This document shows, one piece after another, positions 20,553 to 30,468 of a stretch of DNA of 64,000 bases (its first letter is position 1; each line of letters starts with the position of its first letter). Source of the stretch: Promethearchaeota archaeon (GTDB lineage: Archaea > Asgardarchaeota > Lokiarchaeia > Sigyniarchaeales > SOKP01); the NCBI GenBank assembly GCA_016840085.1, contig JAEOTA010000012.1, forward strand, positions 132,847 through 196,846, read 5' to 3'. Under the pieces are notes generated by a model that worked only from the letters and a program-made list of their open reading frames with translations, was not told the DNA's origin and searched no databases. The translations under genes and the position numbers were made by a program.

Positions 20553-21368
20553 ATGCAGGTTCACGAAATTCGCAATATAACAAATAGAATAAAAGAAAAA
20601 TCAGAAATCAAGACATTTGCAGAATCAGAATTATTTTTAAAAGAATTTCCATTAGATTTAAGAGAAATTATATTAAAACATATTAATGAATCTTTCGAAA
20701 AATTAAAAAGATCTTTATTTCAAGCACTAAAAATTATTCTAGTAAAGTATTCAAATCAAGATTTGATATCAAAAACAGCAGATTTCTTTCAAAAACCAAA
20801 AAGTCAGAAATCTAAACCTAAAAAAATAATTTTTACTGAGGAAGAAATTGATGATTTTGAACAATTAAAATCCGATTTAAATGATTTTTTTTTGGTAATA
20901 AGAGATATGTATACACTTAAAGATCATCTAATTATCGGTTGGAATGAATTCTGTGTTAATCAAGGAATAACTCGTGAGATTCCTTTAGACTCAAAAATCA
21001 GAAGAATTTTTAAAATAAATGAATTTTTAGAAGAAGAATTTGATTCCCCAACTTACAATATTCTAGATCCAATATATAATTTTTTTAATGTTCTTGAGAA
21101 AGAGGATATTGCTAGCTTATTAATAGGAAATTCAGTGTGGAATTTATCAATTGATTATTTTAATAAAATAACTCGTTATAAGATTATGCCTCATAATGGA
21201 GCATTAATAATACTTATTTATTATGAAGGAATATTAGTAGTTATGAAAACATTGAGCATTTGTAAAAACATTCAAGACGTTAATACTTTAGCATCAACAT
21301 ACTATAAGATTTCACAATATGAAGAATGCATTAATTTTATAATAGAACCTTGGAGGGAGATTTTTTAA
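20553..21368 (+). CDS. Hypothetical helical protein, gene 1 of five-gene operon
   Basis: 271-aa ORF; its TAA overlaps the next ATG (TAATG). Confidence 0.75.
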   Translation: MQVHEIRNITNRIKEKSEIKTFAESELFLKEFPLDLREIILKHINESFEKLKRSLFQALKIILVKYSNQDLISKTADFFQKPKSQKSKPKKIIFTEEEIDDFEQLKSDLNDFFLVIRDMYTLKDHLIIGWNEFCVNQGITREIPLDSKIRRIFKINEFLEEEFDSPTYNILDPIYNFFNVLEKEDIASLLIGNSVWNLSIDYFNKITRYKIMPHNGALIILIYYEGILVVMKTLSICKNIQDVNTLASTYYKISQYEECINFIIEPWREIF

Positions 21369-26288: not shown

Positions 26289-26416
26289 ATTCTAGGGTGT
26301 ACTAAAAAAGAAAAATCAGAAATTTCTTCGTTGTAGATGTAATAATAGCTTAAATTATTCTTTAATTATATATATGATTGTAATTTTGTGATACAATGAG
26401 TTGCTATTTTTATACT

Positions 26417-26779
26417 TCACATTAGAGTTTGAGAATTTAAACAATTATTACATAGCATGTCGCATTTTTGAATATAAGGATTATTTCTCCCAACATAAAA
26501 AAACTCAGCCTTCTTAAACTTTTCACATGGATCATATATTTTATCGCGCAAATTTAATAAATATGATTTATTTACTCTATATACTCCATTTATTTGACGC
26601 ACAACAAGCTAGCTATCAGAAAATAATGTTCTTCCAACAGTACTATCTATAGATTTCAATGTTTCTTCCTTTTTAAAAAAAGAGAAAAGATATTTTACAG
26701 AAGTTGTTTTTCCTGACATTGCAGGACCGTAATAAACAATTTTTACCTGTAATGTTTTATTTTCATAATCTAAAATCAT
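26417..26779 (-). pseudogene. Truncated MglA/Arf-like small GTPase (G1-G2 only) joined across a TAG to a wHTH-like/Cys-rich tail
   Basis: KIVYYGPAMSGKTT...RTLF, then SDS*LVVRQINGVYRVN...C..C in the same frame. Confidence 0.75.
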
Positions 26780-26787
26780 AGTTAATT

Positions 26788-27684
26788 CTAACCCCATAAT
26801 GAAACTATTTTATCACCAATAAATGCCTTTTTACCATCTTCAATCAAATCAGAAAAATTTTCTCTCCATTCCTTCGTTATAAATGAAATAATTCTCTCTA
26901 TTGGTGTATCTTCGTAGTCTATAGTTTCTAAAAGAGTTTTACTTCCTATTTTTGCATGATTTTCGATATTATTTAATAAACTCAATCTTGATAAGATAAA
27001 AAAAGCACGTTTTGAACCGGAATAGAAATTTTGAATCTCTCTTTTAAAAATGTTTTTCTTTAACTCAGTTTTTTCTATTTCAAAATCTACTAAAGTTTTA
27101 ATTAAATCTTTATCAAGGTTACTCAGTTTTATCTTATCATTTAAAACTCTTTTCATTTTTATGATGGATTTTTCTGTATCTTGAGAAATCTTTTTAAATA
27201 TATTTTGTTCCAATATTAGATCTCCTGATTTAAAATCAATTCCCTCTAATTCAATGGATATATCACCGGCTGAGAAAATTATGAACAGGTATTTATTTGT
27301 TTTTTTTTTAATCGTTTTTCTTAAATCAGAGAAATGTTCTCTTTTTTGAGGAATTTTCATTCCAATAAGCCAAGAATTGATATTTTCGATTTGACTAATG
27401 CCTTTTGTTGATATATTGCAAGGGCATCTGACATGTACTCTCTGAGAATTAATATCAATATTTTCGTTTAAAATTAGATTATTGTATTCAGAATTTGAAA
27501 TAAAGTCAGTATAAAAAACGTATTCTTTTCTAAAATGAATAAGGTCAGATAAATCAATTAAAAAATTATCAATTTTATCTGAATTATCACCAAAAACGAA
27601 TATTGGAATCCGATCTAATAAACAATAAAGAATTACAGAGGCATCGTTTTTTTTAAGATTATCTAATATTTTGAAGAATTTCAT
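26788..27684 (-). CDS. Hypothetical protein with a possible DENN-like core
   Basis: ILYCLLDRIPIFVFGDNSDKIDNFL..L..LIHFR resembles the cDENN helix-strand-helix; lies between roadblock and GTPase genes. Confidence 0.5.
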   Translation of the reverse strand: MKFFKILDNLKKNDASVILYCLLDRIPIFVFGDNSDKIDNFLIDLSDLIHFRKEYVFYTDFISNSEYNNLILNENIDINSQRVHVRCPCNISTKGISQIENINSWLIGMKIPQKREHFSDLRKTIKKKTNKYLFIIFSAGDISIELEGIDFKSGDLILEQNIFKKISQDTEKSIIKMKRVLNDKIKLSNLDKDLIKTLVDFEIEKTELKKNIFKREIQNFYSGSKRAFFILSRLSLLNNIENHAKIGSKTLLETIDYEDTPIERIISFITKEWRENFSDLIEDGKKAFIGDKIVSLWG

Positions 27685-27697
27685 CTTATCACCAAGA

Positions 27698-28699
27698 TTA
27701 TTTTATTATTAGTTCACCCAACATCCTCTTGATATCAAAGGTTTCATGTTCTTGAATTTTAGATGCTTCTTTTATAAGTTCATTAACTTTTTTTGTAAAT
27801 TGGGGCAAGATTAGTCGAATTAATCCTAGTTTTTGTTTCATTTTTCCAATAACAGTACTAAATATTATTTTCCCCATTCCATCAATGAAATGAAATGTGT
27901 TATCACAATCTAATAGAATTCTTTCCGCGCGCATTCTTTTTAGTAACCACGCACACCTATTTGCAGTCTGAAAAAGGGAATAGCTCATTGCGGATATCTT
28001 ATCTAATTTTTCTGAATTCATTTCAACTTTTTTTAATAACTAAGAAGCGGTAAATCCACCTTCAATGGTTATAAAAGCATAATGTAAATCAGGGATAGTG
28101 AGCGAAATAGTATTTAACACTTTTTTTAATTCTAATGACGTCTTTTTTGAGAAACTTAAGGAAAAAGGAGATAATTTTAGATTGAATACTTCATTTTCTT
28201 TAACATTAAATCCTTCGATAATACTTTGAATTTTCTGACTATTGAATTGAATTAATGGGGGTTTAAAAGACTCTCCTGATGTTATTAGGCTGGTTTTAAT
28301 CTTTCTTAGACAGTCTTTAGTTTGTAAAAATATACCTCCTAAATTAACATTTGGTTGGGCTGTAATTGCCACAAAAAATTCATGTTTCTCATCTAAAATG
28401 CCCTGGGATTCTAAAATCCTATTTAAAGAGGTATCTATAGAGCTTTTTAAAGGAGCAATCAGAATTTTTGCTTTCTTCCCTTCTATTAGGATGTATTTTA
28501 AATCTTTAGGGTGTAAATGAATTCCTACATTGAATATAGCACTAGTAGCGGAACTTACATTAAAGATTTCATCTTTAGAAAACCATACTCCTGTTGATTG
28601 AATTGGATTTCCGTCTCTTTGTGTTAAAACAGCATTTTCTACGCCCTTTATTTGCTTTATTTGGTCTAAGTGAATACCTATTTTTTCATTTAAATTCAT
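27698..28699 (-). pseudogene. Tandem roadblock/LC7 (MglB-like) protein split by an in-frame TAG at 28040
   Basis: Domain 1: GVENAVLTQRDGNPI...PNVNLGGIF. Domain 2: YAFITIEGG...ISAMS...KLGLIRL. The two ORF-track pieces are in frame (FTAS*LLKKVEM). Confidence 0.8.
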
Positions 28700-29229
28700 T
28701 CTACTCTACGTCCTTGAGTTGGTTCATTTTTTAAACTTATCTGCAAATGAATTTTTTATTAAACTATTTATATTCCGAGAAAATTCCAATTGAAAAATTG
28801 ACTTTTGAAATAACCAATATTTCATTGATTCAATATCATAACTAAAGAAATTATTTTTTTGTAAGTCTTACAAGGAACAAAGGAACGCCATTTGAGACTT
28901 CTTTATCGATTAAATAAGGTCTAAATCCTAATTTTCTACACAGATTGAAAAAGTAAGGAAGGTTTAGATAAGATCATCTAAAGGGAGTTCTAAAATACCC
29001 CCCATATTCAAATGCAAAAACTATATTAAAGGATTTTAGAGATTGGACATATCTCATTACAGTTAAAATTTGAAATCCCTTGTTAAGTAGCGTATATAAT
29101 TTCTTTAAAAGTTTTTTCTATTTTCTTACATTTCCTGCAATTCCTATTTCACATTCTTTTAAAGTGTGGGTATTGAATTTTTTCTTCTATTTCAATTTAA
29201 AGATATCAGCAACATAACAATTAGAAATT

Positions 29230-29631
29230 TCACGTGACGATTCGAATCATCTCTTTTGAAATATCTATGCCAATTACATTATCATTTTTATTTAGATCCC
29301 TCATATAATATCCAGTATTGCCTCCTAAATCCAAGATCTCTTCCTTAGACAGTTCAATAAGCTTTTTTTCCACATTATCTAAATCTGCGAAATCTTTAAA
29401 ATATTGACCAATTTCTGCCTCAAGCTTAATTCTATTATACTTTCTTTTGATTTTATTCCCATTCGGGCTATAACAATATTTTTTCATCGAATACAAACAA
29501 TGTTGATGAATATATAATTTGGTCTCTTTATTTCCCCTCCAATAATTATATATTGCGCTAGCAAAGAAATTCATAGCCCTTTCCTTTGGACGTTTTACAA
29601 AAAATTGTAAAAAGCGAACAAGATAGTTCAA
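29230..29631 (-). pseudogene. Truncated class I SAM methyltransferase
   Basis: ILDLGGNTG...VIGIDIS..MI, then a stop. Confidence 0.7.
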
Positions 29632-29874
29632 TAAACTTGCTTGGTTGGAGAGTTTGCTTAAACATTGATATCCTTTATTATTATACTTTTGCAGACTATA
29701 TCATCCGATTATTTATTGAAGTTTAAAAGAATTTGAAATTAAGTTTTAATGTTATCTAGAAATAGCTATTTAAAGTTAATCGAAAAGCAGGATTATCTAG
29801 ATTCTAAAAAAGAGGATATGTATTAAGTTCTCAGAAAGAAGCACATTATTTAGAATAGCTTTAAAAGAGAATGT

Positions 29875-30468
29875 TTAATTTATCACTGAGACCAATTTAT
29901 AATCAAAATAATTTTTCAAAATTAATTTTAAGATGTCTTCAAAACATTCTAATATACCTTCTCCGTTTAATGCAATGGTATATCTTGAATCTATTCTTTT
30001 ATATTTATGAAAACCAATCTTTTTTAAAAATTCTGTAGGATTAAATTTATCTGGTAAATCTTGTTTATTAAATGCAATTATAATTGGAATATTATCAAGC
30101 GTCTCTTTAAAATATGAGATCAATTCGTTCCAAGAAATCAAATTGCGTTCATAAACTTCTTTTTGTGAATCAATTACAAATATTATGCCATCAACCGCTC
30201 TTAAAGTAATTGGCCGAGTAACAATATAAAAATCTTGACCCGTTGTAGTATATATGTTAATTTTTAAAATCCACTCATCATTATGGAATGTCACAACACC
30301 ATAATCAAAAAATAATGTCCTTTTCACAGTACTTTCAATAGAACTTAAATCTTCTTTTTTGCCAAAATGAGAAAATAGAGATTTTATTGAAGTAGTCTTC
30401 CCCGATAAAGCAGGACCAAAATACACTATTTTAATGCTTATTGTTTTATCACAATGATCTATAATCAA
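29875..30468 (-). CDS. MglA/Arf-like small GTPase (intact)
   Basis: GPALSGKT (G1), RTLFFD (G2), TTTGQ (MglA-type G3), NKQD (G4), IALNGEG. Confidence 0.92.
   Translation of the reverse strand: MIIDHCDKTISIKIVYFGPALSGKTTSIKSLFSHFGKKEDLSSIESTVKRTLFFDYGVVTFHNDEWILKINIYTTTGQDFYIVTRPITLRAVDGIIFVIDSQKEVYERNLISWNELISYFKETLDNIPIIIAFNKQDLPDKFNPTEFLKKIGFHKYKRIDSRYTIALNGEGILECFEDILKLILKNYFDYKLVSVIN

Follow-up and report, generated by a model that had tools for sequence, protein, structure and literature searches.

The question raised by this locus is whether three closely packed archaeal genes, for a tandem Roadblock protein, a DENN-like protein and a small GTPase, form a working GTPase regulatory module or are what remains of one. 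The window analysed here is a whole stretch of 64,000 nucleotides of a Promethearchaeota archaeon, and the module genes all lie co-directionally on its minus strand, at the positions and in the order given in a preliminary description made from the sequence alone. The tandem-Roadblock gene (27698..28699, minus strand; Pfam Robl_LC7 3e-5), which encodes a fused MglB-like pseudo-dimer and carries one in-frame stop, is followed after 13 nt by an intact gene for a DENN-fold protein of 298 aa (26788..27684, minus strand), identified from its AF2 model and structural matches. This ORF overlaps by 10 nt with a 62-codon stub of an MglA-type GTPase gene (26609..26797, minus strand), recognised with tblastn against the intact paralog. 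The span originally described holds for the module genes and fails for a 61-codon ORF at its end (26417..26602, minus strand), which has no Pfam match and no homology to the GTPase; it is not the remainder of the GTPase, has no part in the module and is probably no gene. An intact upstream GTPase had been placed about 1.2 kb away and is indeed present, as a solo MglA-type GTPase of 197 aa (29875..30468, minus strand; Pfam and PDB phmmer), separated from the start of the Roadblock gene by 1,175 nt. Between this gene and the Roadblock gene sits a SAM-dependent methyltransferase pseudogene (28854..29631, minus strand) that is unrelated to the module; three-frame translation reveals frameshifts and stops, weak Pfam methyltransferase matches fall on a 133-aa piece, and the pseudogene has 70.7% nucleotide identity to an intact gene on contig C83.

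Comparison with the whole genome by blastn and sliding identity led to an intact paralogous operon in the same genome (C81:825-3374), which adjoins a 16S rRNA gene in divergent orientation. The window segment 26615..28703 (minus strand) is a copy of G000:C81:857-2945; the two are colinear and free of indels over 2.09 kb, with 82.7% nucleotide identity, and the homology is confined to this segment, which runs from the Roadblock start codon to the inside of the GTPase gene at codon 61/62. Upstream of the Roadblock start codon, homology to the C81 copy is absent by both blastn and sliding identity, and since it starts only at that codon, the window copy has no recognisable native upstream region. 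The tree places the window copy as sister to the C81 copy within the genus clade (support 84/92), and within the sampled genus a second copy is found in this genome only; nearly all carriers among the 201 phylum genomes searched have a single copy. Metagenome contigs searched with the window DENN-fold protein gave 21 loci of 62–74% identity, all of the canonical type, and no near relative of the window-type copy was among them.

We consider it very likely that a conserved Asgard three-gene operon was duplicated in this lineage and that the locus is the partly decayed duplicate, the working copy being the one on C81. A 2.09-kb piece, reaching from the start codon of the Roadblock gene to codon 61 of the GTPase gene, would have been duplicated into surroundings with many mobile and broken genes. 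The duplicate would have stayed for long under purifying selection, after which the Roadblock gene would have been lost through a nonsense TAG; the GTPase would have been lost by truncation, at no datable point relative to the TAG, leaving the DENN-fold gene as the sole whole gene of the window copy. Between the two copies, dN/dS is 0.06 for the Roadblock gene, equal before and after the stop (0.07 for the codons after it), 0.26 for the DENN-fold gene and 0.09 for the GTPase stub. The dS between the copies is 0.58–1.09, and the dS between species is saturated, so that any timing is rough. Stretches of 92–96% nucleotide identity are seen within the duplicate in the sliding comparison; these could be due to gene conversion, which would blur the reading of dN/dS.

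The window copy might instead be a rewired working module, in which the DENN-fold protein, perhaps together with reassembled Roadblock pieces, serves a solo MglA-type GTPase. Such a reading would be in line with the whole DENN ORF, the product of which evolves no faster than the C81 copy (dN to five outgroups is equal), with the dN/dS of the Roadblock codons after the stop and with a Met codon six codons past it. It would also be in line with a protein from another data set (P0001) that is 98% identical to the window DENN-fold protein, and with genome G138, of another genus, which carries a solo intact DENN-fold gene without the operon partners. Candidate GTPases are at hand as well, the upstream solo GTPase being one of three near-identical paralogs in the genome (the others are on C82, 83% nucleotide identity, and C46, 77%). 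It matches Thermus MglA with 4e-29 (PDB phmmer) and Pfam Arf with 3.8e-10, shares 54% identity with the operon GTPase and lacks a Roadblock or DENN gene next to it. However, the TAG, at Roadblock codon 220, cuts within the second beta-strand of domain 2, the upstream homology to the canonical copy is absent, the neighbouring genes are likewise pseudogenes and the second copy is restricted to this genome within the sampled genus, which makes a rewired module quite unlikely. That the DENN-fold gene was kept after the decay of its partners as a free-standing regulator that pairs in trans with one or other of the three solo MglA-type GTPases, is unlikely; if true, the pairing of DENN and GTPase in Asgard archaea would be exchangeable rather than fixed by the operon, and the solo gene of G138 would be a second case. 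Returning to the decayed duplicate, the window copy is mostly a relic, although this word may not apply to the DENN-fold gene in view of its intact ORF and its unaccelerated evolution; the operon itself is real but already known.

A DENN-like fold, on which the preliminary description had staked its proposal, is predicted for the 298-aa protein. Its AF2 model (pLDDT 89.3, pTM 0.86) consists of a cDENN-like alpha/beta lobe (residues 1–150) and a helical dDENN-like lobe (residues 157–297). The top match in VIA-align is folliculin (3v42_B, Z 13.2, rmsd 3.4, 186 aa), and further matches are DENND10 (8p0v_M, 11.1), SMCR8 (6lt0_B, 11.0), C9orf72 (7o2w_A, 10.2) and DENND1A (6ekk_A, 9.8), all of them covering the cDENN and dDENN lobes over residues 1–275. 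The longin/uDENN lobe is missing: the model has the cDENN-like sheet as its first element, from residue 28, and the DENN matches align from residue 1 onto the post-longin part of their targets.

Could the protein be unrelated to DENN, that is, a degenerate RecA/GspE-like P-loop ATPase domain joined to a helical bundle, the DENN matches reflecting a common alpha/beta sandwich? Secretion ATPases do match residues 1–150/220 with Z of 9–10.5, and Foldseek against the PDB places MCM and FlaI chains first, with poor TM-scores, and DENND1B at rank 22. Neither Pfam DENN nor Folliculin_C matches the window protein, no Pfam DENN match in the family is over threshold, and PDB sequence searches with the protein and its profile returned chance-level matches only (RadC and ferritin). 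We nevertheless find this reading very improbable, considering that DENN proteins take four of the top five places in VIA-align and that they alone cover both lobes (186–211 residues aligned). Among 47 family members, three match Folliculin_C on sequence (best E 4.8e-4) and one matches DENN (0.093). Neither a Walker A nor a Walker B motif is present in the 298-aa protein, its conserved residues being Arg, Glu and Trp instead of a P-loop, and the DENN-fold gene always lies between the Roadblock and small GTPase genes. As the nearest fold relative is the C-terminal domain of folliculin and the longin lobe is missing, nothing specific points to an exchange-factor role for this protein; we know of no such activity for the folliculin C-terminal domain.

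The copy had been described from the start as damaged, and two lesions are responsible, namely the premature TAG in Roadblock domain 2 (28040..28042, minus strand), located by comparison with the intact paralog, and the cut of the GTPase gene at a rearrangement breakpoint. Reading through the TAG (28042..28040) is required for a continuous Roadblock frame over 28699..27698; gene calling divides the frame into 219 aa and 107 aa. The C81 paralog has AAA (Lys) at this codon, in a column that is variable among the orthologs. Homology of the GTPase to the intact paralog ends at 26615, after codon 61, and one more codon is followed by a TAG. The stub, 92% identical to residues 1–61 of the paralog in tblastn, holds only the P-loop and switch I (GRTLF) with G3–G5 missing, and tblastn with the intact paralog found no remnant past codon 61 elsewhere. 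No terminal repeats link the breakpoint to the neighbouring five-gene cassette; the search gave a single direct repeat, 18 nt long, with copies at 20591 and 26306, and this falls 290 nt short of 26615. A TAG-bearing Logan contig of 1,038 nt is present without differences in three runs of one study, and a contig in run X1 spans the breakpoint junction; therefore, neither lesion is an error of this single assembly. In run X5, which holds a 97%-similar strain, a related contig departs exactly at 26615 and continues as an intact GTPase. No RNA run was among the sequencing runs listed for the sequence, a result that has no bearing on expression. A pyrrolysine reading of the TAG was rejected, with no PylS over the cut-off (best match 25.5 bits against 178) and no tRNA-Pyl found (ARAGORN, which found few tRNAs overall, gave none with a CTA anticodon). 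That the Roadblock gene is whole and the TAG no lesion at all, but either a mistake of sequencing or assembly or a codon recoded as pyrrolysine or read through, is scarcely credible in spite of the Lys in the paralog and the homology that goes on in frame past the stop, given the agreement of the three runs, the PylS and tRNA results and the variable Lys column.

The tandem architecture proposed for the Roadblock protein is borne out by the AF2 model of the intact 333-aa paralog, to which the window frame is 88% identical at the protein level (tblastn). The model contains two alpha-beta-beta-alpha-beta-beta-beta-alpha domains, and both match MglB with Z of about 13: domain 1 (residues 3–140) resembles M. 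xanthus MglB (6hjm_A, Z 13.1) and MK-D1 Roadblock3 (Z 13.3), and domain 2 (residues 185–314) resembles Thermus MglB (3t1r_A, Z 12.9, rmsd 1.7, 130 aa). By homology to MglB, the Roadblock protein may act as a GAP. The operon GTPase, searched against the PDB as the intact C81 paralog, matches Thermus MglA (3t12_A) with 1.4e-27 as against 1.3e-6 for the best Rab, Rab11, in agreement with its earlier designation as MglA-like, and it aligns with MglA end to end. The GRT, ATGQ and NKxD motifs are invariant in the operon GTPases (GRT and ATGQ in 23 orthologs); GRT and ATGQ align to RTLFFDF and PGQ of Thermus MglA, and the start of G3 carries Thr/Ser instead of Asp.

These motifs show the operon GTPase to be a switch of the MglA type that supplies its own arginine finger and catalytic glutamine. 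In the most likely mechanism, the fused double Roadblock would replace the MglB homodimer and, judging by homology, would boost hydrolysis by placing these two residues. A further regulatory or scaffolding role, through binding to the Roadblock/GTPase pair, may fall to the DENN-fold protein; it may be an exchange factor or may contribute the C-terminal half to a trans-assembled, folliculin-like unit of longin/Roadblock and DENN. Complex prediction with the three intact C81 proteins (23-row alignments) gave a score of 0.00 for the DENN-fold protein as partner, which speaks neither for nor against binding.

The gene order had been suggested earlier as a check on the module; of 50 distinct loci examined, 47, spread over nine Asgard families, keep the order Roadblock-DENN-GTPase. 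The DENN-fold family is present in 109 of the 201 phylum genomes searched and is near-universal in families f1, f3, f7, f12 and f15. The working copy and the 16S rRNA gene are arranged head to head in this archaeal order. The switch bears on the origin of eukaryotic GTPase regulators, and the intact operon offers a compact, testable model for the beginnings of the longin/Roadblock-DENN regulators of small GTPases. We found no bench test of the operon in the literature.

[quoted passage not shown] (bioRxiv 10.1101/2020.10.19.343400; Nature 2021), who placed it in most Asgard lineages, put its GTPase outside the Rag family, proposed a GEF/regulatory module and compared it to folliculin. Going by their text, this operon appears to be the present family, and on that account the module is not new. 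Since the significance attaches to the intact operon, already published as a prediction in 2020/21, the window adds small points only: that the operon is capable of duplication and decay, that the DENN-fold gene outlasts its partners here, that the GTPase belongs by sequence to the MglA family rather than being "Rab-like", and that the working copy has its 16S rRNA neighbour. As far as their text describes it, the operon of Liu et al. shares with ours the three folds and kinds of gene in one conserved operon, with the order here kept across the nine families. It differs in the assignment of the GTPase, in that two MglB-like domains are fused in the Roadblock protein here, and in that the window contains an additional copy rather than the working one, with two of the three genes broken.

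Compared with the bacterial MglA-MglB polarity switch of Thermus thermophilus (3T12/3T1Q) and Myxococcus xanthus, the GTPase retains both a switch-I Arg (GRTLFFDF) and the catalytic Gln, and both Roadblock domains resemble MglB. However, the two Roadblock domains are here in one chain rather than in an MglB homodimer, a DENN-fold gene lies between the Roadblock and GTPase genes, and the host is an archaeon, for which we know of no gliding motility. With folliculin-FNIP, C9orf72-SMCR8 and the Rab35 GEF DENND1, the 298-aa protein has in common the cDENN and dDENN fold (Z 13.2 to 9.8) and a partnership with domains of the Roadblock/longin type and with a small GTPase. The catalytic Arg of folliculin-FNIP and C9orf72-SMCR8, which are GAP complexes of eukaryotes, is located in the longin domain. 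The archaeal protein, in contrast to all of these, has no N-terminal longin domain and a sequence identity to them of about 9%, and its putative target is an MglA-type GTPase rather than Rag, Arf or Rab.

The genes of the window locus are all on the minus strand. An intact small GTPase of 197 aa (30468..29875; Pfam matches of Arf/Ras/Roc type) is followed by a SAM-dependent methyltransferase pseudogene with several frameshifts and stops (29631..28854) and by a Roadblock frame homologous to a 333-aa protein (28699..27698). An in-frame TAG at 28042..28040 interrupts this frame, so that ORF finding returns pieces of 219 aa and 107 aa, the former matching Robl_LC7 in Pfam. An intact 298-aa ORF without Pfam match (27684..26788) begins 13 nt past the Roadblock stop and is overlapped by 10 nt by a 62-codon GTPase stub ORF with a P-loop GTPase-like start (26797..26609), beyond which lies an ORF without any match (26602..26417). 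The preliminary description of the locus is correct, and its remark that this copy is damaged is confirmed by the Roadblock TAG and by the cut in the GTPase at codon 61/62. The G+C content of the window is ~26%, and its DNA is present in marine-sediment metagenome runs.

A whole-genome search identified a second 298-aa gene, 74% identical to the window copy, on another contig of the same genome (C81). There it belongs to an intact operon of a Roadblock gene (C81:825-1862; 333/345 aa), the 298-aa gene (C81:1876-2772) and a 203-aa GTPase gene (C81:2763-3374). Window positions 26615..28703 match C81:857-2945 with 82.7% DNA identity and zero indels, and the match is abrupt at both ends. Since homology begins at the Roadblock start codon, which forms the upstream edge, the window lacks upstream sequence homologous to that of the canonical copy. 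The downstream edge lies inside GTPase codon 61/62 and is followed in the window by one codon and TAG; a genome-wide search for the missing two thirds of the window GTPase detected no remnant. The Roadblock TAG corresponds to residue 220, within the second strand of Roadblock domain 2, where the C81 paralog has AAA and the alignment column is variable among orthologs.

Reading this TAG as pyrrolysine is unlikely, the best PylS-like match reaching 25.5 bits where the cut-off is 178; ARAGORN found no CTA-anticodon tRNA, in an assembly where few tRNAs were found at all. Only 7-13 tRNA genes, several with long introns, were detected by ARAGORN in this 4.7-Mb assembly, whose tRNAs may be intron-rich or poorly assembled. 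As for assembly error, a 1,038-nt Logan contig covering 27181..28218 occurs with zero differences in each of three runs of one study, and a contig from run X1 spans 26467..26714, also with zero differences, and so bridges the GTPase breakpoint. In run X5, which belongs to a second study, a related contig departs exactly at 26615 and then encodes an intact GTPase (FGVLQFSGT). The lesions are thus no error of one assembly but, since the sample behind the genome assembly may be among the three runs, could still be strain-specific.

The 298-aa family of conserved hypothetical proteins comprises 370 matches at 90% clustering (88 clusters at 50%), nearly all exactly 298 aa in length, and the named relatives come from Promethearchaeota/Lokiarchaeota-type Asgard MAGs. 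The AlphaFold2 model of the protein (47-row alignment; pLDDT 89.3, pTM 0.86) has an alpha/beta lobe with five parallel-type strands and a hairpin (residues 1-150) and a helical lobe (residues 157-297). When the model was searched with VIA-align against 48,161 PDB representatives, the C-terminal DENN domain of folliculin ranked first (3v42_B; Z 13.2, rmsd 3.4, 186/199 residues), followed by folliculin in the lysosomal complex (rank 2, 6nzd_H, Z 12.7), DENND10 (rank 3, 8p0v_M, Z 11.1), SMCR8 (rank 4, 6lt0_B, Z 11.0), C9orf72 (rank 6, 7o2w_A, Z 10.2) and DENND1A (rank 9, 6ekk_A, Z 9.8). Each of the six matches extends from residue 1 to about residue 275. Scores of secretion and RecA-type ATPases stayed at Z <=10.5, mostly over lobe 1 only, and a P-loop is absent from the protein. 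Foldseek with the same model gave a result that was not clear-cut. Pfam detected Folliculin_C in 3 of 47 family members (best E 4.8e-4) and DENN in one (0.093), neither being found in the window protein. Residues R25, P27, R52, E74, R82, W105, E159, R226, E272/W273 and W297 are conserved in the family. On the basis of the model, the 298-aa protein is predicted to be a cDENN + dDENN core without the longin (uDENN) lobe, the same core as in the C-terminal domain of folliculin.

By sequence, the operon GTPase is placed in the MglA family, with E-values of 1.4e-27 to Thermus MglA and 2e-26 to Myxococcus MglA against 1.3e-6 to the best Rab. The motifs GRT, ATGQ and NKxD are invariant in 23 orthologs, GRT corresponding to the intrinsic arginine of MglA. 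The upstream solo GTPase is likewise an MglA-family member (4e-29) and shares 54% identity with the operon GTPase. It belongs to a set of three solo 197-aa MglA-type genes (window 29875-30468, minus strand; G000:C82:112665-113258 and G000:C46:86155-86748 in the same genome). These are 77-83% DNA-identical over little beyond the gene and occupy three different neighbourhoods, with no Roadblock or DENN genes beside any of them. A further GTPase of 219-231 aa (G000:C81:3846-4526, minus strand; also at loci L048-L050) converges on the intact operon in the window's family; it shares 33% identity with the operon GTPase and has STLYFD in place of the MglA arginine finger RTLFFD. The intact Roadblock protein was modelled by AlphaFold2 (pLDDT 80.5) as two alpha-beta-beta-alpha-beta-beta-beta-alpha domains with a disordered linker. 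Domain 1 matches a Streptomyces Roadblock/LC7 protein (Z 13.3), MK-D1 Roadblock3 (Z 13.3) and M. xanthus MglB (Z 13.1), and domain 2 matches Thermus MglB (Z 12.9, rmsd 1.7, 130/133 residues).

Of 201 sampled genomes of the phylum, 109 have a member of the DENN-fold family, including 36/40 and 42/43 genomes of the two best-sampled families, nearly always as a single copy. At 47 of 50 distinct loci from nine families the three genes follow one another as Roadblock-DENN-GTPase, separated by very small gaps or overlapping slightly; the other three loci are a contig start, a divergent paralog and a solo intact gene. The structural reading of the preliminary description, which called for a DENN-like fold at 27684..26788 and a conserved gene order, thus holds on both points. 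The solo gene (298 aa; L076 5454-6350, G138:C139, in a genome of another genus) is flanked by membrane-protein genes and a 799-aa ORF and has neither a Roadblock nor an MglA gene as neighbour; that genome's canonical operon may be absent from the assembly. A 16S rRNA gene (G000:C81:1-522, L075) stands head to head with the working operon. At six loci of the window's and a sister family (L075, L051, L048, L050, L034, L052) about 270-530 bp separate the 5' end of the rRNA gene from the Roadblock start, the two genes being on opposite strands; a seventh locus, in the window's family, ends too early to show this, and the layout was not seen in scanned loci of five other Asgard families. The adjoining 16S rRNA gene is the reason why MAG contigs often end 1.2-1.9 kb from an operon gene, and operon and rRNA gene may have one upstream control region in common.

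A maximum-likelihood tree built from 47 DENN-fold proteins joins the window and C81 copies as sisters (support 84/92) and nests both within the genus clade. Together with the single DENN-fold copy in each of 10/10 other genus genomes searched, this placement indicates a lineage-specific duplication. Between the two copies, dS is about 0.58 and dN/dS 0.26 for the DENN-fold gene, about 1.09 and 0.06 for the Roadblock gene (dN/dS 0.054 before the stop, 0.07 after) and about 0.47 and 0.09 for the GTPase stub. These values indicate that most divergence built up under purifying selection and that the Roadblock TAG came late, a timing that is rough because between-species dS is saturated. Patches of 92-96% nucleotide identity inside the duplicated segment may reflect gene conversion, which would blur the timing. 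Against five outgroup orthologs, the window DENN-fold protein has evolved no faster than its C81 counterpart and the window Roadblock protein 17-35% faster. The surviving DENN-fold gene might still function without its partners.

The neighbourhood is consistent with a gene graveyard, the methyltransferase pseudogene (28854-29631) having an intact paralog of ~270 aa on contig C83 (70.7% nucleotide identity). Beside the GTPase breakpoint, a variant of 26300-26490 (19 differences in 190 nt) outnumbers the window version by contig depth in two runs, which suggests repeated or mobile sequence. A perfect 18-nt direct repeat, AAAAGAAAAATCAGAAAT, at 20591-20608 and 26306-26323 (5,715 bp apart) may have arisen as a duplicated target or attachment site, or by chance given the AT-rich DNA.

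The module itself is already in print, and what the window contains is an additional, decayed copy. In a preprint (bioRxiv 10.1101/2020.10.19.343400, later Nature), Liu, Makarova and colleagues describe an operon "conserved in most Asgard archaea", whose products are a Roadblock protein resembling LAMTOR1, a small GTPase of Rab-like type that differs from Rag, and a protein with a DENN domain, and propose it as a candidate exchange factor module, a folliculin analog. This is very probably the operon studied here; its GTPase, called Rab-like there, is MglA-family by our comparisons. Full-text searches turned up neither a further publication about the operon nor any experimental work on it. MglA-like GTPases are present in Asgard archaea, and in MK-D1 GTPase genes generally lie outside operons with Roadblock genes (Tran et al. 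2024). Sequences and models establish a strictly linked operon of an MglA-type GTPase with its own arginine finger and glutamine, a fused MglB-like Roadblock pair and a longin-less DENN core. From what is described of the Thermus and Myxococcus MglA-MglB switch (Miertzschke et al. 2011), the double Roadblock protein would act as a single-chain MglB that stimulates GTP hydrolysis. By analogy, the DENN-fold protein may be the exchange factor, or may combine in trans with the Roadblock protein into a folliculin-like unit.
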